Shown: piece after piece, positions 6,955 to 29,486 of the stretch
Numbering within the stretch: position 1 is the first letter of the stretch
How the letters are laid out: the number at the start of each line of letters is the position of its first letter
Sequence record: NC_079180.1
DNA length: 51,548 nucleotides
Reading direction: 5' to 3' (one strand)
DNA from: Escherichia phage SKA49
Notes under the pieces: generated by a model
Databases searched by the model: none
What the model was told of the DNA's origin: nothing
What the model saw: only the letters and a program-made list of their open reading frames with translations
Translations under genes and position numbers: made by a program

Positions 6955-6994
6955 ATTAACAAGGAGCATTCATTGAGTGTTCCTGATTAATCTA

Positions 6995-7013
6995 ACATTA
7001 GTTGGATATGAGG
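6995..7013 (+). promoter_or_regulatory. phage promoter-like motif ACATTAGTTGGATATGAGG
   Basis: Conserved motif about 70 nt upstream of gene 7084. Confidence 0.55.
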
Positions 7014-7083
7014 GACAAAGCTATTCCGTGGTTAGCAATGTCACTGAAACTTAAACTGTAATTAACTTAAGAGAATCTTAATC

Positions 7084-7464
7084 ATGGCACAATATTCAGA
7101 TGTAAACACTGGCATTATCGGTCCTAACGGCTTCAAGAAAGACCCAAAACATCCTGACATTCGTGGACGTATTAACGTTGACGGAATCTGGTATTGGGTA
7201 TCCGGTTGGAACAAGCAAGCAAATGGTAATGAGTTTACCTCACTTGCATTAACCATCATGACCCAAGAACAGGTCGATGAAATGATGCGTAAGCGTGAAG
7301 AGAAAGCTAAAGCCAAAGCTCAACCTCAAGCTGCCGCTCAACAGCAACAGCCTCGACAGCAACCTTCCGCACAACAGCAAGCTCCTGCTCAGCAACAAGC
7401 TCCGCAGTCGTCTGCATACAACCCAAATGAACCACAGGACTTTGACAGCGACATTCCGTTCTAG
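7084..7464 (+). CDS. small protein with bacterial-SSB-type C-terminal tail (ends NEPQDFDSDIPF); candidate mini-SSB or SSB-tail mimic
   Basis: Trp/Gly-rich N-terminal domain, Q/A/P-rich linker, C-terminal acidic tip ending DIPF as in bacterial SSB. Confidence 0.5.
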   Translation: MAQYSDVNTGIIGPNGFKKDPKHPDIRGRINVDGIWYWVSGWNKQANGNEFTSLALTIMTQEQVDEMMRKREEKAKAKAQPQAAAQQQQPRQQPSAQQQAPAQQQAPQSSAYNPNEPQDFDSDIPF

Positions 7465-7585
7465 TGGAGATGCCCTATGAAAATTCTATGTTTTATAGGG
7501 CTACATAATTGGGAAATTTCACACGAAAACGATTATGTAACCATTTGGGTGTGCAGTCACTGTTCAACAATGCGTGAGGAATATC

Positions 7586-8062
7586 ATGGCAAATAAATTT
7601 GTCGAAATACCTGCCAACTTGGTTAAAGCTGGCGACGTATTAGTATACAGCAACAGGGAATATTTAATCGTAAAAGTTCTGCGATTTAGTTCTGTGGTTC
7701 AACTCCAATATTCCGGAGGATACTACAATTTTGAGTTTGGGCGCATAGTAAAAGTGTTGGACAGGCCACCAGCTTCGGGAACTCCAACAATCGAGTTCCC
7801 TAACCAAATAAATCCAGTATTCATTCCTGTGGAGAACAACATGGAAACTTTAAATATCCAAAATGCAATCGAAGCACAACGTATTCTTCTGCAAAAGCTG
7901 GAGCAAATGCTTGATTTAACACAGCTTCCTCCAACAGAAGATGGCAAGATGGCAATTGGCAATGCATCAATTCGCGTGGACAAGGCAACAGTTGTTAAAG
8001 CCGCACGCGATGAAATGAAAGCTGCCGCAAGCAAATCCGCAGAGCTTATCAAGAAATTATGA
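7586..8062 (+). CDS. hypothetical protein (158 aa)
   Basis: ATG with GAGGA RBS; in frame with track ORF 7574..8062. Confidence 0.55.
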   Translation: MANKFVEIPANLVKAGDVLVYSNREYLIVKVLRFSSVVQLQYSGGYYNFEFGRIVKVLDRPPASGTPTIEFPNQINPVFIPVENNMETLNIQNAIEAQRILLQKLEQMLDLTQLPPTEDGKMAIGNASIRVDKATVVKAARDEMKAAASKSAELIKKL

Positions 8063-8221
8063 GAATCTTCTGCAAACTGTTTGGGCATAGTTGGGAGTTG
8101 GTCACAAAGTGGAGAGGTGTGAAAACCTACATGTGTACCTGCTGCCTGAAAATCAAAGAAGAGTAATTAACAGAGGTCATTCCACTTCGAGTGGCCTCGA
8201 TTAATTGTCACTGGAGCATTC

Positions 8222-8802: not shown

Positions 8803-9058
8803 AGAATTAGCTGACCGACTAACGGCAGCAAAGAAAGAGCTTGCAACGCACACCATTCGTGTTAATTCTCTTAAGGCACTCCCTTCTGGTGAGGAAATCT
8901 CACTATTCACAGACAATATTTGGTTTACCATGAATCGTGCGCAGTTTGTTGAGATTCAGGACCAACGTTTGGCTGAACTGGAGCAGAGAGTCAGAAATTA
9001 CGAAGGTTTGTTGCAAACTTTACAAGCAACTCTGGACCAGGAGTTGGGAAATGTCTAA
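8792..9058 (+). CDS. hypothetical coiled-coil protein (88 aa, GTG start)
   Basis: Track ORF; weak RBS. Confidence 0.4.
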   Translation: MKVEELADRLTAAKKELATHTIRVNSLKALPSGEEISLFTDNIWFTMNRAQFVEIQDQRLAELEQRVRNYEGLLQTLQATLDQELGNV

Positions 9059-9467
9059 TGTTAAGTTGGGCCAACGCTCACTTGACCGACTCAAAGGTGT
9101 AAATCCCTCATTAGTGGCAGTTTTCAAGCGTGCATGTGAAACAATGCCGTTTGATGTAACTGTTCTTGAAGGATTGCGCACTTATGAGCGGCAACAAGAG
9201 CTTTTAAAGCAGGGTGCAACCAAAGTTTCAGTTAGCCGACACATGTCAGGCAATGCTTTAGATATTGCACCGTATCCAATTGACTGGAATGACCTCGAAC
9301 GATTCAAAGTTTTAGCTCATCATATGTTCAAAGCTGCAAAAGAGCTTGGAATTACCATTCGTTGGGGTGGGAACTGGGGCCGTATTGATGAAAATCAACC
9401 GTATCCACCACTCGCACCAGGTAAGAAGAAGCTGATTGATATGCCGCACTTCGAACTTCCAGCATAA
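9051..9467 (+). CDS. peptidase M15-family peptidoglycan hydrolase (L-alanyl-D-glutamate peptidase-like)
   Basis: LEGLRTYERQQELLKQGATKVSVSRHMSGNALDIAPYPIDWNDLERF resembles the His/Asp zinc-site block of T5-type endolysins; GGAG RBS; in frame with track ORF 8937..9467. Confidence 0.65.
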   Translation: MSNVKLGQRSLDRLKGVNPSLVAVFKRACETMPFDVTVLEGLRTYERQQELLKQGATKVSVSRHMSGNALDIAPYPIDWNDLERFKVLAHHMFKAAKELGITIRWGGNWGRIDENQPYPPLAPGKKKLIDMPHFELPA

Positions 9468-9487
9468 CTTCATCAATGGAGCATCCG

Positions 9488-10033
9488 ATGGAAAACCAAA
9501 TTAATCAAGCAGTAGAACAGCTTAAGTCCTGGCGTAGAGATGAAACTTTATTGGTTCGTTTCTACACAGGCGAAACTAATTCTGAATTTGTAGATGCGTG
9601 GATTGATGGACTAGCATGGCGCCTTTATGATTTCAGTATGTCCGAATATTTGCATGAAGAATATGGCATTGAGTACCCTGCAACAGGAACTTATGACATA
9701 ATTGAATCAAGAGATGAAGATGTTACAGAGGTTTGCTTTGTTGATGGCCTGTTCAGCCTACGCAAGTATGACAAATTCAATGAGCTTTTAAATGACACTG
9801 ATTTGTTTGTAGTTCTTGCTGCATTCCGTAGTGGTGAAATTGACATTTTCACTGTGAGCAGTTTGAACGACATGTTCATTACTCGTTGTGATTCAATTGC
9901 AGACTACTTCAAAAATTACGATGGGATAGAAGTTCCAGACCATCTTCGTCCATATATTGATTGGGATGCAATCACCAAAGATTACGGCAGTGACTATATC
10001 TTCTCTGAAGGAGTATTGTTCTTAAATGCGTGA
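9488..10033 (+). CDS. hypothetical protein (181 aa; alternative start 9476)
   Basis: Track ORF 9476..10033; GGAG precedes second in-frame ATG at 9488. Confidence 0.5.
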   Translation: MENQINQAVEQLKSWRRDETLLVRFYTGETNSEFVDAWIDGLAWRLYDFSMSEYLHEEYGIEYPATGTYDIIESRDEDVTEVCFVDGLFSLRKYDKFNELLNDTDLFVVLAAFRSGEIDIFTVSSLNDMFITRCDSIADYFKNYDGIEVPDHLRPYIDWDAITKDYGSDYIFSEGVLFLNA

Positions 10034-10265: not shown

Positions 10266-10334
10266 TTCCAGGCGGGTTTCTTCGAAGTGCCAAGCGGGTT
10301 TTGTGCTCGCATTGGCCTTCGGCTTTAGTCTGAA

Positions 10335-10353
10335 ACATTAGTGGGATTTGATT
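10335..10353 (+). promoter_or_regulatory. phage promoter-like motif ACATTAGTGGGATTTGATT
   Basis: Preceded by CTGAA as in other copies; intergenic. Confidence 0.45.
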
Positions 10354-12436: not shown

Positions 12437-12465
12437 GTCGTTTGACGAATCAGAGCAGTTCTGAA

Positions 12466-12484
12466 ACATTAGTTGGATGTGGAA
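12466..12484 (+). promoter_or_regulatory. phage promoter-like motif ACATTAGTTGGATGTGGAA
   Basis: Best consensus copy; about 75 nt upstream of the codon-optimised gene 12560. Confidence 0.6.
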
Positions 12485-16441: not shown

Positions 16442-18205
16442 ATGAACGTCAAGCAATGTGTGGCTAAGATTAAGCACGATGTACCAGACTGTAAATCCAC
16501 ATCTGGCAAGTCTTTACAGGTTTGGTTGAATGTCGATGAAGCTGGTAATAAGAACTTCTCTGGTTACTGCTTTGCGTGTGGCGTTCTAGTACCAAATCCT
16601 TATGGCAATAATCCGGAGAACATTCCAGAGATTAAAGTCAAAACTCCAGAAGAAATTCAGGAAGAAGTTGATGAAATCACTGCTTGTCCTCCGTTTGATT
16701 TAACCCATCGCAGCATCGAGCCAGAATTCTGGAAAGCTGCTGGTGTCCGACTTCTGTATTCAGAGTATGATGGAAAGACTCCAAATGCTCTGGCACATGG
16801 CTACACCAAAAATGGTAAACTTGTTCGTTGGAAGATTAAACTTCTGAACAAGAAAGTTATGTGGTCAGTTGGCGACACTCAGGGTAACGACCCTTACAAC
16901 TGGATGGCTGCAAAAGCAATTGGCGGTAAGACACTGTTCATCACAGAAGGTGAAGAAGACTGCATCGCATTGCGTCAAATCCTCAAAACTATGAACCGTG
17001 GTGGTGCATATGAAGATTTGGATTTTGCTGTAATTAGTTTGAGTGACGGAAGTGATTCCGTACACAAATGCTTGTCGCCAGTTGCAGAAGAAATTAAGCA
17101 ACGTTGGGAGCAGGTTGTTATCGTATTTGATGATGATGAACCTGGACGTAAAGCTGCAAAAGAAGCGTGTCGATTGTTGCCTGGTGCAATGATTGCAACA
17201 CTTCCAGCTAACGATGCCAACGATTGTTTGAAGCGTGGCTTGCTCAAAGCTACTCAATCTGCTGTTGTGTTCCGTGCTGCTCGTCCTCTGCCTACAGCAC
17301 TTGTCAACAAAGAACTTCTTATGGAAGAGCTTGATGACGAGGTTGAACAGGGTGTGGACTATCCTTGGCCCAAGCTAACTGACTTAATGTTTGGTCAACG
17401 TCGAGCCGAAGTTATTACAATCGGTGGTGCAGAAGGTGGTGGTAAAACTACCTTGTCCCGTCAGATTGTGCATCACAACATTACCAAGCACGATTGGGGA
17501 GTGTTTACTGCATACATGGAGGAAACTCCTACAGAAACATTGCGCCGAATGGCTGGCCTTAATGACAACTTGCCATATTGGGAACCTGCGTTTACTCGTG
17601 AAGACCCTCGATATGATGAAGCTAAGTTCCGTCAAACTGCTGCGAAGATGCTTCGTAACATGGAGATTTGGGACCGCAAGCAAGCTGGAGAAGACCCTTA
17701 TGAAACCTGGGATGGGTTAAAGACGATTCTTCGTCAGATTGGACCAGACATTGATATGTTTGTCCTTGATAACTTAACCTACTTATCGGAAGGGATTTCT
17801 GCGTCAGAGAAGAACGACTTTCTGGGCAAGCTGTATGCAGACATTACAAAGTTAGCAGACCAGTACCAGTTCCACGTGAATATTCTGTCGCACCTTAACC
17901 CTGTGGCAAAAGGTCAACGACCTCATGAGGATGGTGGACGTATTAAGAAGTCAGACTTTACTGGCTCACGTGCTGCTGCTAAATATTCTCATGGTATGTT
18001 CGGCTTTGAGCGTAATAGCCAGGCAGTTGACCCAAACTGTTCTATTATTCGTTCCATCAAAGCTCGTAAGAGTGGTAAAACAGAAGGCTTCAAGACGTAT
18101 TATGACACCGAATCTGGTCGAATTATTCAACGTTCTTGGGATGACTCTCTGTTCGAAACTAAAGAGATTGTTCAACTTACTAAGAAGAACGGTCCACACC
18201 AATAA
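16442..18205 (+). CDS. DNA primase/helicase (zinc-finger, TOPRIM and DnaB-like helicase domains)
   Basis: Zn-binding SGYCFACGV; TOPRIM LFITEGEEDCIAL and VFDDDEPGRKAA; Walker A GGAEGGGKTT; Walker B-like MFVLDNLT. Confidence 0.85.
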   Translation: MNVKQCVAKIKHDVPDCKSTSGKSLQVWLNVDEAGNKNFSGYCFACGVLVPNPYGNNPENIPEIKVKTPEEIQEEVDEITACPPFDLTHRSIEPEFWKAAGVRLLYSEYDGKTPNALAHGYTKNGKLVRWKIKLLNKKVMWSVGDTQGNDPYNWMAAKAIGGKTLFITEGEEDCIALRQILKTMNRGGAYEDLDFAVISLSDGSDSVHKCLSPVAEEIKQRWEQVVIVFDDDEPGRKAAKEACRLLPGAMIATLPANDANDCLKRGLLKATQSAVVFRAARPLPTALVNKELLMEELDDEVEQGVDYPWPKLTDLMFGQRRAEVITIGGAEGGGKTTLSRQIVHHNITKHDWGVFTAYMEETPTETLRRMAGLNDNLPYWEPAFTREDPRYDEAKFRQTAAKMLRNMEIWDRKQAGEDPYETWDGLKTILRQIGPDIDMFVLDNLTYLSEGISASEKNDFLGKLYADITKLADQYQFHVNILSHLNPVAKGQRPHEDGGRIKKSDFTGSRAAAKYSHGMFGFERNSQAVDPNCSIIRSIKARKSGKTEGFKTYYDTESGRIIQRSWDDSLFETKEIVQLTKKNGPHQ

Positions 18206-18270: not shown

Positions 18271-20205
18271 GTGTTGTATCCTTGGGAAAATATGTATGCC
18301 AGTGACATTGAAACAACTGGCCTGTTGGAGCAAATGCGCAAGCAAGCTGCACCACGTCTTCACAACATCGGATATATTGATGTTCTGACTCGTGAAGAAA
18401 CTGTAATAGAATGGACCGACAGAAAATCTATCCAGGCATTTCTGGATACAGGCCCAACACTAATCATGCACAACGGCGCAACCTTTGACTTTGAAGCACT
18501 GAGGTTCCTTGGTTACGACGTTTCAAAATGTACACTAGTTGATACCTTGTTTATCAGTTGGTATCTGCAACCTCGTCGTGTTAAGCACGGTTTAGAAGGT
18601 TACGGCGAAGAGTTTGGTGTGCCAAAACCAGTCATTGAGGATTGGGAAAATCAAACTCAAGAAGAGTACAACCATCGTGTGATGGAAGACTGCAAGATTC
18701 AGTTGAAGCTGTGGGAACAGCAATACATTCAACTCTTGAAGATTTATAAATCTCCTAGCGAAGTTAAGCGCTTCGTTGAATATCTGATGACAAAAGCTCG
18801 TCAACAAGTTATTCAACAACGTACTCGCTGGAAGTTAAACATTGAGAAGGCATTGGCATTTAAGGCCAAGCTGGAACCAATGATTAAAGAGAAGACGGAC
18901 GCATTGGAAGCATCAATGCCACGTATTCCAGAATATGTTATCAAAACCCGTCCAGCTAAATGCCACAAGTTGAACGGACAACTGTCTGCCGCTGGTATTA
19001 AGTGGAAGGCTATATGTGATGCGAACGGTTTGGATTGGAAAGACCCAGAGATAGGTATCAGAATCTTAAAGGGCTATAAAGAACCGAACGCTGGTTCTCA
19101 CGTACAGATTAAGGATTGGTTGTTCAGCTTAGGTTGGGAACCAGAAACATTTAAGTTTGACCGCAATAAGGAAACAGGTGAAACCCGCCAGATTCCTCAA
19201 ATCACTGTGAAGGATGAAGATGGCAATCCTGAAATATGTCCAAGCCTGCATAAGTTGGCGGAAAGAAACCCCGAATCTGGTATTCAACATCTTATTGGGA
19301 TGGGCGTGTATAAACACCGTCTCTCTGTTGTTAATGGTTTCCTTCGCGACGTCGATGAAGACGGATACCTTACTGCACGATGTGGTGGCCTTACCAATAC
19401 TTTACGTCTTAAACACCGCGAACTTGTTAACCTCCCTTCTATTCGTGTATTTGGCGGTGAAGAACTGCGTTCAATGTTGGAAGCGTGGCGCGAAGACTAC
19501 GAACAGTTAGGCTCTGACTTGTGCTCACTGGAAGACCGTTGTAAACACCACTTCCAATGGATGTATGACCCTGAATACGTTAAGAAGCAGTTGGCACCAG
19601 ACTATGATGCTCACCTTGCAATTGGCGTAATTGGTGGATTTATTACAGAACAGGAATCTCAGGACCACAAGGACGGAATTAAGAAGTGTAAACAACGTCC
19701 AATGTTTAAGACCACAAACTATGCTTGTCAGTATGGTGCTGGTGTGCCAACTGTAGCTCGTTCTGCTGGCTGTGACCAGACTACTGCTGCACGACTGCAT
19801 AAAGCATATTGGGACTTGAACTGGTCTATTAAAGAGATTGCTGCAAACACCAAAGTTATCACAGTTGATGGTCAGATGTGGCAACAGAATCCAGTAAACA
19901 AATTCTGGTATTCATTGCGTACAGAGAAAGACCGCTTCTCCACATTGTGTCAGGGTACTGGTGCATATGTGTTTGATGTTTGGTGTAACAACATCATTGC
20001 AATTTGTAATGAACGTTGGGGATGTGACCCACTTCTGTCTGGACAATTCCACGATGAATTGATTCTCCAGGTTAAGAAAGGTTTCCGTGATTTGTGGACG
20101 GACTTGCTTAATGAAGCAATGGACCGAACCAACAAAGAACTTAAACTCAATCGTGATTGTGCATGTGATGTACAATTTGGCGACAACTACGCGGAGATTC
20201 ACTAA
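18271..20205 (+). CDS. family A DNA polymerase with 3'-5' exonuclease motifs
   Basis: Exo I DIETTGL, Exo II HNGATFDFEAL, motif B KQRPMFKTTNYACQYG, motif C FHDE; GTG start with GGAG RBS (alternative ATG 18292). Confidence 0.85.
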   Translation: MLYPWENMYASDIETTGLLEQMRKQAAPRLHNIGYIDVLTREETVIEWTDRKSIQAFLDTGPTLIMHNGATFDFEALRFLGYDVSKCTLVDTLFISWYLQPRRVKHGLEGYGEEFGVPKPVIEDWENQTQEEYNHRVMEDCKIQLKLWEQQYIQLLKIYKSPSEVKRFVEYLMTKARQQVIQQRTRWKLNIEKALAFKAKLEPMIKEKTDALEASMPRIPEYVIKTRPAKCHKLNGQLSAAGIKWKAICDANGLDWKDPEIGIRILKGYKEPNAGSHVQIKDWLFSLGWEPETFKFDRNKETGETRQIPQITVKDEDGNPEICPSLHKLAERNPESGIQHLIGMGVYKHRLSVVNGFLRDVDEDGYLTARCGGLTNTLRLKHRELVNLPSIRVFGGEELRSMLEAWREDYEQLGSDLCSLEDRCKHHFQWMYDPEYVKKQLAPDYDAHLAIGVIGGFITEQESQDHKDGIKKCKQRPMFKTTNYACQYGAGVPTVARSAGCDQTTAARLHKAYWDLNWSIKEIAANTKVITVDGQMWQQNPVNKFWYSLRTEKDRFSTLCQGTGAYVFDVWCNNIIAICNERWGCDPLLSGQFHDELILQVKKGFRDLWTDLLNEAMDRTNKELKLNRDCACDVQFGDNYAEIH

Positions 20206-20466: not shown

Positions 20467-21333
20467 ATGGCATTTGCTGCTCCTACACTGGCCTCGAACA
20501 AGACTCCTTCTGCTGCACCATTACTGGAAGCGGGTGGTTATCCTGCTCGTGTTTGCCGTATTATCGACCTGGGCTTACAGCCTGGTTCTGCTAAATATCC
20601 TACCCCGTCTCTGAAACTTCTGGTGACTTTCGAACTGCTCGACGAGTACATGAAAGAAGTTGACAGTGAAGGTAAAATGGTCATGGTTCAAGACCCAGAC
20701 GAAGATGACGGCATCATGATGGCGAAGAATCTTGAAGACAAGCCGCGTTGGTTTGACTTTGAGTTTACCTATAATGCTGACGGCTTCATGGGAGAGAACT
20801 CCCACATCTACAAATTCGCTAAGGCGATTGATGCACTGGAAGTTAAACCTAATCTGGAACAAGGCATTCAGGGCCATCCTGCCAAGAACCTGCCGGATTG
20901 GTTGGGCGAACCTCTGATTGTTGGCATTGTTCAGTATACCAAGCAGTCAGGTAAGAATGCGGGTCAGGTTGCGAACAAAGTTGCTACCTTCTCTCCGATG
21001 AAATCCAAAGAGAAGAAAGAAGCCAAAGCTCTGGTTAACCCGACTGTCTTCTTCGACATGTCCGAGCCGGACCTGGAAGTATTCAACAAACTGCCAGGTG
21101 GCGAATCTCCGTATGCAATCAAGAACCGTATCACTTCCGGTGTTGATTTCTACAAGACTAAGCTGTCTGCACTGTTAGGTGGCAAACCTGCTGATGATGG
21201 TGCTGTACCGAATCAGGCTTCTGATGAAGAAGTTGATGCAGCTATGAAAGCTGAACTAGAAGCACAAGCTGCTGCGAAAGCACAGCGTGAAGCTGAAGGT
21301 GGTGCTGCTGGCGGCACAGGTATGCCCTTCTGA
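20467..21333 (+). CDS. abundant replication-module protein of unknown function (288 aa); candidate ssDNA-binding or annealing protein
   Basis: Host-optimal codons; C-terminus ends Gly/Ala-rich then MPF; followed by strong terminator. Confidence 0.55.
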   Translation: MAFAAPTLASNKTPSAAPLLEAGGYPARVCRIIDLGLQPGSAKYPTPSLKLLVTFELLDEYMKEVDSEGKMVMVQDPDEDDGIMMAKNLEDKPRWFDFEFTYNADGFMGENSHIYKFAKAIDALEVKPNLEQGIQGHPAKNLPDWLGEPLIVGIVQYTKQSGKNAGQVANKVATFSPMKSKEKKEAKALVNPTVFFDMSEPDLEVFNKLPGGESPYAIKNRITSGVDFYKTKLSALLGGKPADDGAVPNQASDEEVDAAMKAELEAQAAAKAQREAEGGAAGGTGMPF

Positions 21334-21810: not shown

Positions 21811-22825
21811 GAAGAAAATCCTTTTGCTGGTCGATTTTGATATGGTGGCATTTAGTCATTGTGCGGCAGAAGAATTTGGGAAAGAGCCAGAAGATATAAA
21901 TTTCTCAAAGATTCAAATGTCAATGGACTCTAAGATGGAGTTCTTGTCGAAGCGTTCTGGCGCAACTCATGTTATGGGTTTCGTATCTCCTTCTAAGACA
22001 ATGCGAAACGTGTTTGCCGAAAATTATAAAGGCAATCGAGATAACGTGTGGCGTCCAGAAAACTTAAAGAATGCCAAGGCCCACTTGCTTGTTGCATGGA
22101 ATGGGTATTGGATGAAAGGTCTGGAAGCAGATGACCTTCTCGCTGTATTCGCACGTCATGAATACGAAATGACAATGGGTAAACGTAATGAGATTAAGAG
22201 CCTCACTCGTATTGGTCCGTGCACATATGACGAAGTCTGGATTGCATCGTTGGACAAAGACTTGCGCCAAATCGGGCAGAATGGTGGTGTTGGTCCAGTA
22301 ATCAAACATTACCAATGGGAACGAGAAACCCAGGGTATTGGTGAGAAGGTTGTAACTCCTCAGGATTACGGCGAACTCAAACTAATCATCAAGGACAATG
22401 GCAAGTCGAAGAAGAAAGAAGTCAAAGGCAATGGCCCTAAATTCTTCTTGCATCAATTGCTTATTGGCGACTCAACGGATAACGTTATGGGTTGCGGAGT
22501 TCTTGAAGAAAGAATTTACAAAACTGGTGCCAAAGCCGGAGAAACTTATTTCCGTCGTGATGGCATTGGTGCAGTTGCTTCATTCGAAATGCTGGATGGT
22601 ACAACATCCTATGCAGAAGGTTTGAAGAAAGTTATTGGTGCATACATTATGCGCTTCGGAGATGGTTGGGAACAAGAGCTGCTCAAAGTGGGCCGTCTTG
22701 TTTACATGCACCATCAAATTGAAAAGGGTAATTGTGTTCGCTTGTGGCATTACAAGAACATTAACGAATACTTTGACCTTAAAGAGAATCGTATCCTCAC
22801 TCAAGAAGAGTATCTCCAGAAATAA
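21800..22825 (+). CDS. 5'-3' exonuclease / flap endonuclease
   Basis: ILLLVDFDMVAFS, GLEADDLLAVFA and LIGDSTDNVMGCG resemble Pol I 5'-exonuclease motifs. Confidence 0.8.
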   Translation: MASKKKILLLVDFDMVAFSHCAAEEFGKEPEDINFSKIQMSMDSKMEFLSKRSGATHVMGFVSPSKTMRNVFAENYKGNRDNVWRPENLKNAKAHLLVAWNGYWMKGLEADDLLAVFARHEYEMTMGKRNEIKSLTRIGPCTYDEVWIASLDKDLRQIGQNGGVGPVIKHYQWERETQGIGEKVVTPQDYGELKLIIKDNGKSKKKEVKGNGPKFFLHQLLIGDSTDNVMGCGVLEERIYKTGAKAGETYFRRDGIGAVASFEMLDGTTSYAEGLKKVIGAYIMRFGDGWEQELLKVGRLVYMHHQIEKGNCVRLWHYKNINEYFDLKENRILTQEEYLQK

Positions 22826-22836
22826 TTGGAGTTGGA

Positions 22837-23361
22837 ATGGCTTACGGTTATTGTGGAACGGAAGCCAAGTTTGTATCTTGGCTCCAATCTGCTATTCGAA
22901 GTGTTTGGTCTAAACACCCAAGCAAACTCGCGCTGATACAATCTCGACGCATTGCATTGAAGGTCGGCGATTCAAAGAAACCAATCTTCCACATTCAATG
23001 CTACCATTGCAAGAAGTTGTATAAGCTCAAAGAGATTGAAGTAAACCACAAAGTTCAGGTTGGTGGGCTCCTTAAGTTGGAAGACCTACACCGCTTTGTG
23101 GACAACCTTCTACTGGTTCAGCCAGAAGATTTGGAATTGCTGTGTAAAGATTGTCACGGCATTATTACATACATGGAACGATATGGTGTATCCCGACGTG
23201 ATGCAGTCATTGAGAAGAAGTGTATTGCATTTGCCAAATTAACTGACGAAGAGCAAATTGCCAAGTGCAATCTTGCTAAAATAGAGCCAGTTCCTAAAAC
23301 CAAAATCGGACGCAAGAATGCTGTTCGAGAATACCTGAGAAAGAATCTTAATGTCTATTAA
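22837..23361 (+). CDS. HNH-like endonuclease domain protein
   Basis: CYHCKK...EVNHKVQVGG...LCKDCHG arrangement. Confidence 0.55.
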   Translation: MAYGYCGTEAKFVSWLQSAIRSVWSKHPSKLALIQSRRIALKVGDSKKPIFHIQCYHCKKLYKLKEIEVNHKVQVGGLLKLEDLHRFVDNLLLVQPEDLELLCKDCHGIITYMERYGVSRRDAVIEKKCIAFAKLTDEEQIAKCNLAKIEPVPKTKIGRKNAVREYLRKNLNVY

Positions 23362-24106
23362 GCTCCTCGATGACGGTACAAGATACACAAAGGCTCACGC
23401 ACATGATTGGGAAGACCCAGACTGCCGTATCAAAGGGCGCTGTGAACTCTTCATCAAGATTGACGGAATTCGAGCTATCCGTAATAAATCAGGTAGTGTC
23501 TGGAGTCGTAATTCCAAACCCCTACCTCATTTGGACCACTTACAGTTCAGAGATGCTGAGATATTCCGTAATAGTTGGAATGAGACTTCTAGCATCCTCG
23601 GACGTATTGACCCGCCAAGCATCCCACTAACCCAGGACAATGTGTATGAGTTGAGTGATGGTGCTGTTGACCCACGCCTGTACATCGGCTGGTGCAAAGA
23701 CCCAAGCAATGAAAACCTTAAGGCATTGATGGATAAATATCTGGCGCTTGGTCATGAAGGTATCATTGTCCGTGATGCAAGAGGTAAATGGTGGAAGATT
23801 GTACCATATAAATACGCCGATGTGAAGATTACTGGTATGAAAGAAGGTACTGGTGCTCTTAAAGGTATGTGTGGTTCTATCTCCTCGAACTACGGCAGTG
23901 CTGGTTCAATGGTGAAAGATTGTCTGGCAGACCACGGCATTCCAGAATCTAACACATTGATTCGTAAGTGGTTGTGGGAACATCGCCACGAACTAATTGG
24001 TTCGATTATGCAAGTTCGATATCGTGAGAAGACAGAAGCTGGTAAGTTCCGGTTCCCGTCACTCGTCCGTTTACGTGCAGACAAAAGTGAGGAAAGTTTT
24101 GATTAA
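23351..24106 (+). CDS. ATP-dependent DNA ligase (compact)
   Basis: Motif I FIKIDGIRA (KxDG); LGHEGIIVRDARGKWWKIVPYKYADVKI resembles motifs IV-V. Confidence 0.75.
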   Translation: MSIKLLDDGTRYTKAHAHDWEDPDCRIKGRCELFIKIDGIRAIRNKSGSVWSRNSKPLPHLDHLQFRDAEIFRNSWNETSSILGRIDPPSIPLTQDNVYELSDGAVDPRLYIGWCKDPSNENLKALMDKYLALGHEGIIVRDARGKWWKIVPYKYADVKITGMKEGTGALKGMCGSISSNYGSAGSMVKDCLADHGIPESNTLIRKWLWEHRHELIGSIMQVRYREKTEAGKFRFPSLVRLRADKSEESFD

Positions 24107-24725
24107 ACGATTAGCTGTTATTCTCAATGGACCTCCTGGCTGCGGCAAAGACACCATTGCAAATAAGATTGTTGCTGCTGAGGAACCTTACTTCCTCGGC
24201 AAACGCAAATTCATTAAACACCAGTTTAAGGATGCACTGTATGAGCATACTGCCAAACACTTTCAAGTTGATGTGGACAAGTTTATCCACTACGCTTCGG
24301 ACCGTGACCTCAAAGACTCTATCTCCCTTGCAGGTCTTGGTGGCAGAACACCTCGTCAGGCTCTTATTCACGTTAGCGAAGACGTGTATAAACCTCGCCA
24401 CGGACAAGACTACTTCGGTAAGGTTGAGGCTGCTCGTGTTGAAGAACTCGCGGGGCGTATGGGTGGCATTATTAATGTCATTTATCCCGATGGCGGTTTT
24501 GGTGATGAAGTCGTTGCCATTGAGTCTGCTTATGATTTTGTCCTCATTGTGCGTTTGCATCGTGATGGTTTTGATTTCACGGGCGATTCTCGCAGATACA
24601 TCAACCTCCCAGACACACCTACCCGCGTAACAGTGGATGAACATCTAGTTGATGGTAAAGTGGGTGATTCTGTATTCAAAGTGTTCAACTGGATTGAACG
24701 CGTAACTTATCAAGTAGAGAAATAA
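24099..24725 (+). CDS. deoxynucleoside monophosphate kinase-like P-loop protein (start uncertain: TTG 24099 or GTG 24087)
   Basis: P-loop LNGPPGCGKDT resembling T4 gp1 GxxRSGKDT; GAGGA before TTG; in frame with track ORF 23997..24725. Confidence 0.55.
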   Translation: MIKRLAVILNGPPGCGKDTIANKIVAAEEPYFLGKRKFIKHQFKDALYEHTAKHFQVDVDKFIHYASDRDLKDSISLAGLGGRTPRQALIHVSEDVYKPRHGQDYFGKVEAARVEELAGRMGGIINVIYPDGGFGDEVVAIESAYDFVLIVRLHRDGFDFTGDSRRYINLPDTPTRVTVDEHLVDGKVGDSVFKVFNWIERVTYQVEK

Positions 24726-24727
24726 TC

Positions 24728-25327
24728 ATGTCTTGTATGACCCAAGTTGTTGCAGTTAAACGAGTGCATCCTAATGCGAAATTACCTGTGTACGCTACTG
24801 CTGGCGCTGCTGCTGCTGACGTTTGCACTATCTCCGATAGCACTGTTGTTATCAATCCCGGCTGCTCTGCTGTTTTCGATACAGGCCTCCAATTCGAGAT
24901 TCCAGTTGGATACGAACTCAAAGTACATAGCCGTTCTGGTCATGGCTTTAAGTCTGGTATTCGCTTGGCAAACTGCACAGGAATTCTGGACTCCGATTAT
25001 CGTGGTAATCTTATGGTTAAGCTGCACAATGACTCGGACACAGCCTTTGTGGTTCAACCAGGTGAACGTATTTGTCAGGTGCAAGTTAGTAAAGCTACTC
25101 AACACCATTTCGTTGAAGTTGACAGCTTGAATGAAACTGCTCGTGGTGTAGGTGGCTTTGGTTCTACTGGACGTGTAGAAGTTGGTCAGTACGACCCAAG
25201 TCTTATCGTTCCATCAAACGGCTCACACTCGCACAGCATGTCTGTTGTTGGCGAAGGCACAACGGCCTTTGTTTCAGGAACAACTTCAATTGGTACCCAC
25301 ACTCGCGGGGCCGAACGTTACAAATAA
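24728..25327 (+). CDS. dut: dUTP pyrophosphatase
   Basis: dUTPase motifs RSGHG, GILDSDYRG, GERICQ, RGVGGFGSTG. Confidence 0.9.
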   Translation: MSCMTQVVAVKRVHPNAKLPVYATAGAAAADVCTISDSTVVINPGCSAVFDTGLQFEIPVGYELKVHSRSGHGFKSGIRLANCTGILDSDYRGNLMVKLHNDSDTAFVVQPGERICQVQVSKATQHHFVEVDSLNETARGVGGFGSTGRVEVGQYDPSLIVPSNGSHSHSMSVVGEGTTAFVSGTTSIGTHTRGAERYK

Positions 25328-25345
25328 ATCTGGAACCTATCTGAA

Positions 25346-25675
25346 ATGAAACTGTCCTCACCTGTTGTAGTAAATAGCCGCAAAGTTAGATTTGCATATC
25401 TCAAGTCCAATGTCACCTCCACTGGTGGCGGGACTTATCTCACCCGTGCACTTGCAGTTCGCAACGAAACAGGTGCGGATGTTATCGTTTTCATGCTCCC
25501 TCATGGTGAAAACACAATCAAGAACGTCGAACGTATCAAGCGTGGGCGCGAAGATTTAATGTCGGCTGTTAAGCCGCTGATACTGCCATTTAAGATTGTG
25601 GTGGTTGTTGGTTCTACCCAAACATATCTGGAAGATTTCTATAAAGATATGGCCTGGAGCGATATTAAATATTAA
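25346..25675 (+). CDS. hypothetical protein (109 aa)
   Basis: Track ORF upstream of packaging module. Confidence 0.5.
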   Translation: MKLSSPVVVNSRKVRFAYLKSNVTSTGGGTYLTRALAVRNETGADVIVFMLPHGENTIKNVERIKRGREDLMSAVKPLILPFKIVVVVGSTQTYLEDFYKDMAWSDIKY

Positions 25676-25692
25676 GCGACACGCGTAATTAT

Positions 25693-25710
25693 GGAGGCTA
25701 TCTGGCCTCC
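25693..25710 (+). promoter_or_regulatory. hairpin GGAGGC-TATCTG-GCCTCC nested in GCGAC...GTCGC inverted repeat
   Basis: Perfect 6-bp stem in the 55-nt spacer before gene 25731. Confidence 0.3.
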
Positions 25711-25730
25711 TATCTTATTCGGAGTCGCTT

Positions 25731-25916
25731 ATGCGCACAATACAATGTCCTAACTGCCATTATGAAATTGCAGAAGATGATTTCATAACGCAGCAATGTC
25801 CTATCTGTGATTCATACATGCCACTAAACCGCCTGTATTTAAAGGCCGATTCTGGTTTAGGCAGCATCATTCGCATCAATCCCGTGCAAACTCAGCCATT
25901 AGTGGATTGTGATTAA
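25731..25916 (+). CDS. small zinc-ribbon protein (CPNCH...CPICD)
   Basis: Two CxxC pairs; GGAG RBS. Confidence 0.5.
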   Translation: MRTIQCPNCHYEIAEDDFITQQCPICDSYMPLNRLYLKADSGLGSIIRINPVQTQPLVDCD

Positions 25917-25936
25917 AAAACAAAGAGAACGAATCA

Positions 25937-27955
25937 ATGTCAAAGACTGATGACCTCGGACCGGAGTTTAATGATACAGTAGCCTCGTATCTTGCCAAGC
26001 ACTACGGTGACGTATTAAAAGTCTCAAGAGAAAGATTCTGTATTCTATCTTTGCCATTGCTCCGTCGATATATTTCAGAAAATACTGCAATAGTTGACAG
26101 CTATGAAGAACAAATTCAAGCAGAGTTAGAAGGCCAGGGTCTTGAAAACGATGCTGTATTGCGTTCCGTTTTCAGAGCACAACTTGAGCGTCTTCGCTCT
26201 GGCGACAAGAAAGACTCGACTGCCTATGCAGATGAGTTGAAGAAAGGTATTCAAGCAGGTGTTACTGACCGTGTTGCAGGTTCCACATTAGAGGAGCCAA
26301 ACTCGGAGCATGATAACACCGATGAACTTGTAGACAAGATTCTGCATGACCCACACAATGTGGACCCAACTGTAATCCCTGCCAAGGTTGCAGAACGTGT
26401 TCGCAAAATCTTGATGAAAAGTTTCGAAGCCTTTGGTAAATGGCAGTTCCATATTCAGATGGGATTTCCATTTCAAGCACAAGACTTTCACGATGTAATA
26501 TTCAGTGTTGGTCAGAAGGTTGTTGATGGTGAAATTGACCGCTTAATAGTGACAATTCCTCCACGACACTCTAAGACTCAGCTTATGAGTATTGCATTGC
26601 CCTTGTATTCATTTTGCCACAATGAATCAAGCCATAACATTATCACCTCGTATGCAGAAGACGTTGTTCTTGAATCGAGTGGTTACATTCGTGCTGTAAT
26701 GATGGACCCACTGTTCCAACGCATATTCCCGAAGGTGAGAATCGACCCTAACAAACGTTCTCTTGAACGCTGGGGTACAACCAAAGCTGGAGTTATGCAC
26801 GCAGTACCTACTGGTGGTAAGCTAACTGGTAAAGGTGCTGGACTTCTTGTTGCAAAATACTCCGGTTGTTTCGTGGTGGATGACGTTATCAAGCCGAAAG
26901 ATGCCTACTCTGACACAGTTCGAGCAGAAATCAACGACCGATTTGATAACACCTTTATGTCACGTCTTGCCAACGATGGTTGCATAACTGATTCGTACGG
27001 AAACCAAATTAAGTGTGCCCGTACACCAATGGTTATCATCATGCAGCGAGTCCATGACCAGGATTTAGTTGGTTATATACTCCGTGGTGGCTCTTCTGAT
27101 AAATATCATTACCTCAATATCCCAGCGATTATTGAGAAAGGTGTCGGAAGTGCTGAATGGTATGATAAGTTAATCAAGAAGCAGAACTACACTCATGCTA
27201 TACCCATTCTGTATAATTTGAACAGGAAGGAAGAGAAGTCTGCATTATGGCCTTCACGTAAGAGTTTAGAATCTCTGGAGGCAATGAAAGAGTCTAACCC
27301 ATACACATACAATTCACAGTATGCTGGCGACCCATCTGCACAAGGCCATGGCCTTATCAAAGAAGATTGGTGGCAAGAGTATGAGCCAGACGTTTTCGAC
27401 AGAAGTCGCATAGTCAGAAGTTTTATTACAGCGGATACGGCATCAACTGCCAAATCCTATTCTGATTATTCGGTCCTTAAGCATTGGGGCGTGACTAAAG
27501 AGCGTGACGTTTATTGTTTAGATATTATGCTCGGTAAGTTTGAAACTCCAGAACTCAAGACTGCTATCATCGACTTCTGGAACAAATGCAACAAGTTGGA
27601 CTTGAAATGCGTAGGTTGTATTCCTCGTGCATTGTACATGGAAGACAAGTCTGCCGGACAATTCTTGAACCAACAATTTATCAGAGATGGGAGTGTCCGA
27701 GTTTTACCATTGCCTCGTGATGGCATTAATGGTAATGACAAGGTAACTCGATTCCTTAACGCAATCCCATATTTCTCGCAAAAGAGAATATTCTTCCCTG
27801 CTGGTCATGAACACATCGACCACGTTAGACGTGAAATACTTGGATTCACTTCTTTGGGTAGTGGTACTGGACACGACGATTGTGTCGATAACGTTTCAGA
27901 TATGGTTGCAATCGAATTCTCAGGCCCAAGTGCCAACTACTCCGCATGGATGTAA
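25937..27955 (+). CDS. terminase large subunit
   Basis: Walker A-like PRHSKT, Walker B VVDD, nuclease Asp blocks ITADTAS and GHDDCVDN. Confidence 0.85.
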   Translation: MSKTDDLGPEFNDTVASYLAKHYGDVLKVSRERFCILSLPLLRRYISENTAIVDSYEEQIQAELEGQGLENDAVLRSVFRAQLERLRSGDKKDSTAYADELKKGIQAGVTDRVAGSTLEEPNSEHDNTDELVDKILHDPHNVDPTVIPAKVAERVRKILMKSFEAFGKWQFHIQMGFPFQAQDFHDVIFSVGQKVVDGEIDRLIVTIPPRHSKTQLMSIALPLYSFCHNESSHNIITSYAEDVVLESSGYIRAVMMDPLFQRIFPKVRIDPNKRSLERWGTTKAGVMHAVPTGGKLTGKGAGLLVAKYSGCFVVDDVIKPKDAYSDTVRAEINDRFDNTFMSRLANDGCITDSYGNQIKCARTPMVIIMQRVHDQDLVGYILRGGSSDKYHYLNIPAIIEKGVGSAEWYDKLIKKQNYTHAIPILYNLNRKEEKSALWPSRKSLESLEAMKESNPYTYNSQYAGDPSAQGHGLIKEDWWQEYEPDVFDRSRIVRSFITADTASTAKSYSDYSVLKHWGVTKERDVYCLDIMLGKFETPELKTAIIDFWNKCNKLDLKCVGCIPRALYMEDKSAGQFLNQQFIRDGSVRVLPLPRDGINGNDKVTRFLNAIPYFSQKRIFFPAGHEHIDHVRREILGFTSLGSGTGHDDCVDNVSDMVAIEFSGPSANYSAWM

Positions 27956-27957
27956 AT

Positions 27958-28170
27958 ATGGCGGTTATCACTCGTTTAGATGCCCGCTCACGCAAGAACA
28001 ACTCCTTCCAGATTCAGGATTTGGAAGGAAACATTTTATGTGTGATTGAGGCAGTTTCTACCACAGAGAGCGACTGTGTTAAGTTAAAGCACGAGTCAAA
28101 TCTGCGACTCCACACCTCCGACAACATCCAAATTGTTAAGGGTAATGGAACTATTCTGAGGAAGAAATAA
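27958..28170 (+). CDS. hypothetical protein (70 aa)
   Basis: ATG directly after terminase stop; in frame with track ORF 27946..28170. Confidence 0.45.
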   Translation: MAVITRLDARSRKNNSFQIQDLEGNILCVIEAVSTTESDCVKLKHESNLRLHTSDNIQIVKGNGTILRKK

Positions 28171-29486
28171 TGACTTCCAAGAAGAAAAACAATCTTTCTG
28201 TTAAAGTTGCAGATGGGTTAGAAAACCTTGTAACGGGGTTGGGCGGTCAAGCAGATAAGTCTACTTTCAACCAGTGGACTTTCTCAAACAAGAACGCGAA
28301 CTATCGCGAACTTATGAACCGCTTCCGTGAGGACTGGGTTGCACAGAAAGTGTGTACCGTCATTCCTCAAGATATGACGCGTAAGTGGCGGCATATTGAT
28401 AGTGAAGAAGGACGCAAAGCGGATAAGAAACTTCGTATTCGTAAGCTGTTCCGTGAAGCATATCAATGGGCCAGATTGTATGGTACTTCATTTGTTCTGC
28501 TCGACCTGAAAGGTACGGGCAAACTTGATACACCATTGCGACTGGATAACTTGAAGACTGGATGTATTAAATCCATGAGAGTTATTGACCGCTCACGCTT
28601 ATTTGCCGCAGGGACTATGGTTCTGGACCCTTTGAGTCCTCACTATGGTTTGCCAGAGTATTACACTTTGGCCGGATATCCCGGCTATATCCACTACACT
28701 CGTTTTCTTCGGTTCGAGGGTACTGAACTGCCGCTGTTCGAATTCCAACGTAACATGTGGTATTCCGATTCGGTACTTATTCCACTGCTGAAAACGATTG
28801 ACCAATTCTACACAACTGCCGCTGCTGCTGCCAGCCTTGCCCAAGAAGCCACCATTGATGTGGTAACTGTTGAAGGCTTACAATCTCTGCTTACATCGCC
28901 GGAAGGTGAAGCTGCTGTGATGAAGCGCTTCAAACTTATGAAGCTGGCAAAGAGTATTTATAACGTCCTAATTCTCGACAATACTGAGAAGTATGACACC
29001 AAGTCAATTGCACTATCTGGTGTGAAAGATTTGATTTGGGAATACTTGAAGATAGTTGCTGCCGCAGTTGGTATTCCGGCTACACGTTTCCTTTCTGCAT
29101 CTCCAGACGGTATGAATGCTACGGGCGAATCTGACCTCGTAAACTATATCGACTTGTTGACAGGCTTGCAGACTTCTGTGTTCGACCCTCGTTTAGATGT
29201 GGTAGACAAGATTGTCCAGGCGCACTTTGGCATTGAAGAATATAACTACGAATGGTTAGACATCTTCCCTGAATCCAATGTTGAGAAAGCGAAGCGAGCT
29301 AAAGATTTGGCATTCGCTGTTGACCTGTTGGTTAACAATGGCACCATAACTACCGAAGTTGCAAACGAAGTCATGTTCCATTCGGGCGTGTTCGGCACTT
29401 GTGACCTTGGCAAGCCAAATCCTAATCCTCCTAACATCCAAAAGGGTAACGCAAGTGAAGCAAAACCAAAACCTGGTTCAGCTTAA
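28170..29486 (+). CDS. portal protein
   Basis: 438 aa, immediately after terminase and before scaffold/capsid genes. Confidence 0.7.
   Translation: MTSKKKNNLSVKVADGLENLVTGLGGQADKSTFNQWTFSNKNANYRELMNRFREDWVAQKVCTVIPQDMTRKWRHIDSEEGRKADKKLRIRKLFREAYQWARLYGTSFVLLDLKGTGKLDTPLRLDNLKTGCIKSMRVIDRSRLFAAGTMVLDPLSPHYGLPEYYTLAGYPGYIHYTRFLRFEGTELPLFEFQRNMWYSDSVLIPLLKTIDQFYTTAAAAASLAQEATIDVVTVEGLQSLLTSPEGEAAVMKRFKLMKLAKSIYNVLILDNTEKYDTKSIALSGVKDLIWEYLKIVAAAVGIPATRFLSASPDGMNATGESDLVNYIDLLTGLQTSVFDPRLDVVDKIVQAHFGIEEYNYEWLDIFPESNVEKAKRAKDLAFAVDLLVNNGTITTEVANEVMFHSGVFGTCDLGKPNPNPPNIQKGNASEAKPKPGSA

Follow-up and report, generated by a model that had tools for sequence, protein, structure and literature searches.

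[quoted passage not shown] There are a few non-OB exceptions, phi29 p5, the PC4-like protein of phage T5 and poxvirus I3, and each of them is informative on how ssDNA is handled. The PC4-like proteins bind ssDNA and have a beta4-alpha topology; the one of T5 is regarded as the replicative SSB of that phage. A further family that bears on the present case, DUF736, is a functionally uncharacterised backbone gene of conjugative elements of the ICEMlSym type. The protein discussed here, from Escherichia phage SKA49, ends like a bacterial SSB and has an N-terminal domain in which the searches described below found no OB fold.

The window, which is the whole stretch of DNA that was analysed (51,548 nucleotides, NC_079180.1), comes from a Chaseviridae myophage of E. 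coli that resembles phiEcoM-GJ1 and ST32 (Carltongylesvirus relatives). The DNA of the region is about 90% identical to that of Escherichia phages ST32, SA91KD, phiEcoM-GJ1 and their relatives. Both the gene and its SSB label are already known. The GJ1 orthologue, ABR68727.1, has been labelled 'putative single-stranded DNA-binding protein' since its deposit in 2008, and in the ST32 paper the orthologue is listed under the replication genes purely by BLASTp. The gene is present in 111 isolate phage records by tblastn, nearly all of which carry the SSB label. In PHROG it matches phrog_7364 (E 4e-44) and phrog_18154 (E 4e-16), both of which are named SSB at the level of annotation, and 39 of 39 diverse relatives match both entries. 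GJ1 was annotated from similarity to other phage proteins and the phiVC8 copy was annotated from similarity to GJ1. The SSB annotation is circular, GJ1 and phiVC8 citing each other's lineage. From the sequence comparisons, the label of the whole family appears to derive from the linker and the tail and from no other part, the tail being the apparent basis of the existing annotation. No functional study of any family member was found in the open-access literature on DUF736, the Chaseviridae SSB, phiVC8 or phage SSB-Ct, and the family is missing from the 2016 global survey of viral replication proteins. What appears to be unreported is the non-OB character of the putative DNA-binding part, the existence of a huge DUF736-related phage family with host-matched SSB tails, the paired half-barrel unit that tandem members would indicate, and the absence, as far as could be found, of an experimental anchor for the SSB label of the family.

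The gene and the parts of its protein

The coding sequence (7084-7464, plus strand) is complete and encodes 126 aa, with the ATG at 7084 and a TAG stop codon at 7462-7464. A weak Shine-Dalgarno-like AAGAGA (7069-7074, plus strand) lies 9 nt 5' of the start codon and is kept in GJ1 and SA91KD. The full sequence of the protein is MAQYSDVNTGIIGPNGFKKDPKHPDIRGRINVDGIWYWVSGWNKQANGNEFTSLALTIMTQEQVDEMMRKREEKAKAKAQPQAAAQQQQPRQQPSAQQQAPAQQQAPQSSAYNPNEPQDFDSDIPF, and its C-terminal end reads ...AYNPNEPQDFDSDIPF. The protein is laid out as a beta-rich domain (residues 1-60), a helix (61-79), a linker (80-114) and the tail NEPQDFDSDIPF. In the AlphaFold2 (AF2) model four strands are formed by residues 9-14, 26-32, 35-46 and 49-58 and are followed by the helix at 61-79, with pLDDT of about 90, and residues 86-114 are disordered.

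The predicted four-stranded beta-meander core consists of residues 9-58 (7108-7257, plus strand; AF2 pLDDT about 90). It is basic and rich in aromatics, and it carries the family signature N-x-G-x-I/L..N..K....HPD.RG....G.WYW.SGW.K....F.SL. Residues 1-79 have a pI of 9.05 and 7 aromatics, and the domain contains invariant Trp and Tyr together with conserved Lys and Arg. The helix, TQEQVDEMMRKREEKAKAK, is amphipathic in the AF2 model and is encoded at 7264-7320 on the plus strand. The linker (7321-7425, plus strand; pLDDT below 50) is predicted to be intrinsically disordered and is the counterpart of the IDL of bacterial SSB. With 15 Q, 8 A, 6 P and no acidic residue, it is indeed the Q/A/P-rich linker before the tip that a sequence-only reading of this DNA had described. 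The acidic tip NEPQDFDSDIPF (residues 115-126; 7426-7461, plus strand) is an SSB-Ct-type docking motif at the extreme C-terminus. These last 12 residues have a pI of about 4, and they are followed at once by the stop codon, which leaves the ...D-I-P-F end of the tip at the free C-terminus behind a disordered linker.

The sequence-only reading had also placed a small protein with an SSB-type C-terminal tip at 7084-7464. The ORF is exact, the residues of the tip are invariant in homologues, and the matches found in the PDB are to the linker and tail of SSB. Among PDB chain sequences these matches are the SSBs of E. coli and Salmonella (1eqq, 7f2n), and they are confined to the linker and the tail. 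The alignment pairs PQDFDSDIPF with PMDFDDDIPF; its E value is 0.03-0.05 when the single sequence is the query and 8.8e-5 with the profile of the family. When E. coli SSB was compared with the whole window by tblastn, the sole match was at 7321-7461 (E 2e-5), where the linker aligns with the E. coli SSB IDL. The NCBIfam SSB models match at profile positions of about 84-177, which are again linker and tail, with 18-25 bits vs cut-offs of 54-260. The window tip NEPQDFDSDIPF differs from the E. coli tip by one deletion and a change of D to S.

The N-terminal domain gives a different picture. No match of this domain to PF00436 or TIGR00621 was found with the Pfam and NCBIfam models, and no solved structure similar to it was found. 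The earlier description of the domain as short for an OB fold is right in its first half, since the structured part of the AF2 model is short, but it would be wrong to see a truncated OB fold in it: the domain is a beta module of another kind, which appears remotely related to DUF736.

The family and its host-matched tails

The close homologues (n=46) are 115-141 aa in length. N8, G10, I11, N15, K18, H23-P24-D25, G28-R29, G34, W36, W38 and W42 are invariant among them, as are F51, S53-L54, T57, M59-T60-Q61 and D65. G10, P24, G28, G34 and W42 are invariant throughout the superfamily. In the tail, F120, D121, I124, P125 and F126 are invariant in 30 homologues, and the linker varies in both length and sequence. 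A tail that was not kept in homologues had been named beforehand as the result that would speak against the sequence-only reading; this check was made, and the homologues do keep the tail.

A profile of the N-terminal 76 residues only, with the tail left out, was compared with 1.84 billion cluster representatives and retrieved 2344 clusters (50% identity) at E <=1e-3, of which 154 were at <=1e-10. Most of the retrieved proteins are 80-190 aa long and share the core YDNTNxGxLxKNxxKxxDxHPDYxGxxNVxGxxYWxSGWxKxxxxGxxFxSL. Among the representatives listed, the best 149, the tip [DEN]x?[IVLM]P[FWY] is terminal in 83 (56%), with the exact DDDIPF in 32. About 16 more of these best 149 have a looser or internal tip, and many of the remainder look fragmentary. 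The tail was outside the query and yet the tip is frequent; the coupling of domain and tip is therefore a property of the family and not an accident of the SKA49 gene. One candidate from the representative search, P0049 (1158 aa, 21 repeats), was rejected as a spurious repetitive translation.

Variations in the architecture are observed within the family. The helix corresponding to residues 61-79 is present in a subset of the superfamily only and is missing from most of the distant members and from all tandem members. The tandem two-domain members, 32 of the 261 collected, lack the helix and retain the tip. Sub-threshold matches to PF05284 (DUF736) were obtained with 7 of 39 diverse members, the best at E 7e-5. 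The window protein itself has no match to PF05284 in Pfam, and the DUF736 gathering threshold was not reached. JGI or precomputed Pfam matches assign some family members to DUF736, and a Foldseek search of BFVD also reaches a DUF736 protein. These sequences suggest that the N-terminal domain is remotely related to DUF736, the relation running via intermediate sequences only.

The family is found in phages of many hosts. A tblastn search with one tip-bearing member matched 142 phage records, and with one tip-bearing member tblastn gave no match in the PLSDB plasmids. The hosts of the matched phages include Vibrio, Escherichia, Erwinia, Acinetobacter, Yersinia, Pectobacterium, Klebsiella, Burkholderia, Stenotrophomonas and others, and the family spans the Chaseviridae as well as the Z-genome phiVC8-like and Acinetobacter phages.

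The tails of these proteins were compared with the C-termini encoded by the chromosomal ssb genes of 80 gammaproteobacterial species. In several lineages the tail is that of the host. The tail of Vibrio phage K225, PQYNEPPMDFDDDIPF, equals the end of Vibrio SSB, with 16 residues identical, and the tails of the Erwinia and Pantoea phages, NNEPPMDFDDDIPF, equal the SSB end of E. amylovora and Pantoea. Two metagenomic members have 19 residues, SAPPVYNEPPMDFDDDIPF, identical to the end of Aeromonas SSB, and one member is identical over 16 residues to the E. coli/Proteus SSB end APSNEPPMDFDDDIPF. These host-matched tails span 14-19 residues and reach past the nine-residue functional tip into the linker. 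Likewise, the tail-coding DNA of several phage genes has 91-98% identity over 39-56 nt with bacterial ssb 3' ends. This similarity makes an acquisition of the tail module through recombination likely, short of proof, as bacterial ssb genes are conserved at their 3' ends anyway and the matches were picked as the best among 80 loci. The host-matching of the tail is an argument for recognition of the tip by host SSB-interacting proteins and not by phage proteins alone.

For SKA49, the idea that its tail was taken recently from the ssb gene of E. coli was considered and rejected, as positions 7290-7470 have no nucleotide match in 5,426 E. coli genomes. The window tail NEPQDFDSDIPF is, judged by its residues, a diverged form of the E. 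coli tail.

Genomic context and the role of the protein

The phage-specific promoter motif AACATTAGTTGGATATGAG lies on the plus strand at 6994-7012, 72 nt 5' of the ATG, and equals 'putative phage promoter 3' of phiEcoM-GJ1. This 19-nt motif has four copies on the plus strand (2561, 6994, 10334 and 12465) vs 0.02 expected by chance. Promoters annotated in GJ1 and SA91KD align with it, and the intergenic region is 93% conserved. Since the motif coincides with annotated phage promoters, the SSB-like gene is read as the first gene in a transcription unit of the phage RNAP. A terminator-like hairpin at 8173-8198 (plus strand) was found by consensus scan only, and SA91KD has a terminator annotated at the equivalent place. 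The transcription unit probably consists of the promoter, the SSB-like gene, a 39-aa ORF (7477-7596) and a further ORF (7586-8062), and ends at this hairpin.

Downstream of the SSB-like gene are an endolysin (8937-9467), an ArdA-like anti-restriction gene (9476-10033), a primase-helicase (16442-18205) and PolA (18271-20205). Thymidylate synthase, 5'-3' exonuclease, endonuclease VII and ligase genes are also found downstream. In the Chaseviridae about 8 kb separate the SSB-like gene from the replication module downstream of it; its neighbours are small early genes, with an anti-restriction gene next to it, a location that would also fit a factor for host takeover. In unrelated phages the family is associated directly with replication genes. 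In Vibrio podophages of the phiVC8 type, PolA and Prim-Pol follow immediately after the tandem form, and in another phage lineage the family gene is directly downstream of PolA. In integrase-bearing temperate phages it is found among genes for a clamp-like protein, MazG and dNMP kinase.

No OB-type SSB was found in the window by tblastn with E. coli SSB, nor when the larger ORFs without an assignment, and part of the small ones, were compared with PHROG, Pfam and the PDB. In related loci tblastn found no OB-type SSB, and the annotation of phiVC8 contains no other SSB. The true SSB could be one of the ORFs of the window that have no assigned function, such as the one of 288 aa that lies between the PolA and exonuclease genes.

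The sequence-only reading had left the choice between a minimal phage SSB and a decoy. The minimal SSB is favoured, as a putative role, because the tail is conserved and in some lineages host-matched, PolA and primase are neighbours of the gene in unrelated phages, the gene is the first behind a promoter and no OB SSB was found elsewhere in the window. The explanation that we regard as fairly probable is that the protein is a non-OB replicative phage SSB that engages host SSB partners. Further points in its favour are the coupling of domain and tip across the family, the T7-like gene order, the tandem members, the basic and aromatic-rich domain and a weak profile similarity, above the controls, to the ssDNA-binding strands of PC4. 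Against it count the location of the gene away from the replication module, the unassigned ORFs and the departure of the window tip from that of E. coli. The basic, aromatic-rich four-stranded beta module would pair with a second copy to give an eight-stranded barrel-like unit, in which the helix at 61-79 would be an extra interface. The paired unit would coat ssDNA at a T7-like replisome made up of the primase-helicase and PolA. The flexible Q/P/A-rich linker would present the SSB-Ct-type acidic tip with its free terminal Phe. Host SSB-interacting proteins may take up this tip in their pockets, and so might the phage polymerase or helicase, in the manner of the tail of T7 gp2.5. In this way the phage protein would replace host SSB as the hub on phage ssDNA, necessarily competing with host SSB. 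The binding of ssDNA, the dimerisation and the identity of the partners of the tip are the parts of this scheme that we infer. The strong phage promoter together with the host-type tip suggests that the phage protein competes with host SSB for partners. As such competition is inherent in the scheme, 'SSB' and 'decoy' are not mutually exclusive.

A decoy in the strict sense would be a protein that hijacks the SSB hub by its tip and whose beta domain is a non-DNA-binding oligomerisation scaffold or a protein-binding module. The tail, expressed in abundance, would titrate ExoI, RecQ, RecJ, PriA, Ung, Pol III chi and others away from host SSB, and host replication, repair or DNA-based defence would be crippled. 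This is unlikely in our estimate. The location of the window gene in an early, host-takeover-like region near the ArdA-like gene and away from the replication module would suit a decoy, but the tight linkage to PolA and primase in three other phage lineages would not. The copying of the host SSB tail exceeds what a phage-internal interaction needs, and the predicted fold is without precedent among SSBs; however, a basic, aromatic-rich domain that is conserved across 2344 clusters goes beyond the needs of a scaffold. In addition, an SSB is normally required by a phage that brings its own replisome, and the searches of the window detected no other. The long IDL would be dispensable for a decoy but is required by a hub that is bound to DNA.

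Fold, ancestry and comparison with known systems

One tandem member was modelled, and the model is an eight-stranded meander barrel with pLDDT above 90. If the model is correct, it implies that the single-domain members act at least as dimers. From the models, the conserved unit is probably a half-barrel of four strands that functions pairwise, and the helix would add a further interface.

A variant of the favoured SSB reading, differing from it in fold and ancestry, is that the protein is a PC4-like ssDNA binder that forms a helix-swapped dimer, is a relative of the PC4-type SSB of T5 and has been fused to a bacterial SSB tail. We consider this quite unlikely. [quoted passage not shown] When the broad family profile was compared with the C-terminal domain (CTD) of human PC4 by hhalign, HPDxRGRINVDGxWYW aligned with VRDFKGKVLIDIREYW, an alignment that takes in the region of the DNA-contacting residues F77, K78, K80 and W89. 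The match is weak (score 24-25, P 1.2-1.6e-4, probability 51-55%). It stands above the controls: scores of 7-12 were obtained with CspA, streptavidin and the OB domain of E. coli SSB, and no more than 19 in 200 shuffles of PC4. However, the probability is only about 50%, HMMER with the family profile retrieves no PC4 in the PDB, and the narrow family profile vs PC4 is not significant. The model of the tandem member is a closed barrel, and PC4 and Whirly proteins are absent from its top 60 structural matches.

A strongly diverged OB-fold SSB, in which the fifth strand is unrecognised or comes from the partner subunit (as has been proposed for N4 SSB and DUF669), is very improbable: OB folds are notoriously difficult to spot by sequence, the acidic tail is a typical feature of OB SSBs and faint sequence matches (E 0.09-0.9) lead to a small OB fold, the Shiga-toxin B subunit, but the N-terminal domain matches neither PF00436 nor TIGR00621, hhalign against the OB domain of E. 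coli SSB is at background (score 10), and AF2 gives a plain four-strand meander without the beta3-alpha-beta4 connection of an OB fold.

The favoured reading, a non-OB phage SSB, can be extended to the whole family. In its widest form, which we put forward as possible though at somewhat less than an even chance, the family would be a widespread and structurally new class of phage SSB. Its half-barrel of ~55 residues, dimeric or tandem, would bind ssDNA, would repeatedly have captured the linker and tip of the local host, and would take over the host SSB interactome on phage DNA. The DUF736 proteins would be tail-less cousins that act on transferred ssDNA.

Should the family bind ssDNA, it would define a new scaffold for SSBs and offer a natural experiment on modularity, the same host tail being joined to a DNA-binding module that is foreign to it. 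The host-matched tail raises the question of which host SSB partners are still needed, or have to be neutralised, by a lytic phage that supplies its own replisome. If DNA binding is lacking, the protein would instead be a type of SSB-tip mimic that has gone unreported, and the 'SSB' annotation on such phage genomes would be wrong.

The comparison with the described systems brings out what is shared and what is distinct. For the PC4-like proteins, namely the T5 SSB (4bg7), bacterial YdbC and SP_0782, homology to the window protein is not established, and the sources consulted mention no SSB-Ct tip on them. The N4 SSB/DUF669 proteins are a precedent for phage SSBs that are recognised through an acidic tail, the context and the lack of another SSB. 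They belong to an unrelated sequence family and have been argued to be a diverged OB fold, whereas no such signal is seen in the window protein. The similarity to DUF736 is centred on a PDY-x-G ... G-W-x-K ... (Y/F)-L-S motif.

The gene order of SSB-like protein, endolysin, primase-helicase and PolA recalls that of T7 genes 2.5, 3.5, 4 and 5. T7 gp2.5 and the window protein likely share the same role, that of the SSB of a T7-like replisome in a phage with a T7-like RNAP, and both have an acidic C-terminal tail that ends in Phe. However, no relation in sequence or in predicted fold was found between them by PHROG, PDB and structure searches, and no OB fold of the gp2.5 type was found. The window tail copies the motif of host SSB and not the T7-specific tail.

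The bacterial homotetrameric SSB, as in E. coli and including its phage and plasmid copies, follows a tripartite logic that is common to both proteins, with a Q/P-rich disordered linker and a tip of the form ...DFD(D/S)DIPF. The difference lies in the first of the three parts. The putative DNA-binding module of the phage protein is non-OB, and its structured part has about 60-79 aa vs about 112 aa in the bacterial protein.

Genes and motifs around the SSB-like gene

The SSB-like gene shares the early/middle region of the window with genes for an L-Ala-D-Glu peptidase-type endolysin (8937-9467, + strand) and an ArdA-like anti-restriction protein (9476-10033, +; phrog_14321, E 3e-53). A promoter-like phage motif, AACATTAGTTGGAT..., occurs in four copies on the + strand (2561-2579, 6994-7012, 10334-10352 and 12465-12483), compared with 0.02 expected by chance, and presumably serves the phage's T7-like single-subunit RNA polymerase. 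A 39-aa ORF (MKILCFIGLHNWEISHENDYVTIWVCSHCSTMREEYHGK; 7477-7596, +) lies 13 nt 3' of the SSB-like gene, its 3' end overlapping the beginning of the ORF that follows (7586-8062), and it is kept in phages GJ1 (gp16) and SA91KD (gp20). Judging by the C/H...CxxC spacing, its product might be a miniature zinc-binding peptide.

Between PolA and the 5'-3' exonuclease is a conserved 288-aa ORF (20467-21333, +) that matches phrog_862, a family of unknown function, and has no match in Pfam or PDB. It could encode a replication or recombination protein that has gone unrecognised and is therefore a caveat on the absence of another SSB in the window.

Residues beyond the tip

The annotated 'SSB' CDS of the Vibrio phage phiVC8 (28677-29192, minus strand) continues past the tip as ...DFDDDIPF-MDTYHRQSKLGHCV*, so the C-terminal Phe would be buried. 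The extension runs into the beginning of an inserted HNH endonuclease gene, which separates the 'SSB' CDS from PolA. Residues after IPF are also found in several metagenomic members of the family (P0064, P0070, P0120, P0161, P0162 and P0023). The extra residues could be a sequencing or annotation error, or the tip could genuinely be inactivated or regulated in this way.

The SSB-like ORF at the Pseudomonas lundensis ssb locus likewise has residues after its tip (DFEDDIPF-LGYGYGVCRGALYGIS). Possible explanations are a paralogue, a frameshift and an error in the assembly.

Association with Z-genome modules

The SSB-like family is found together with 2-aminoadenine (Z-genome) modules in phiVC8 (22305-29192) and at three other loci of relatives, L003 (10001-16514), L006 (2355-7337) and L007 (8001-14538). 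A PurZ-like adenylosuccinate synthetase and a DatZ-like HD phosphohydrolase adjoin the SSB-like gene and PolA at these loci, and L006 also has a MazZ-like pyrophosphatase beside them. Further tblastn matches to the family are Acinetobacter phage SH-Ab 15497 and Salmonella phage PMBT28, both of which we take to be PurZ-carrying (Z-genome) phages.
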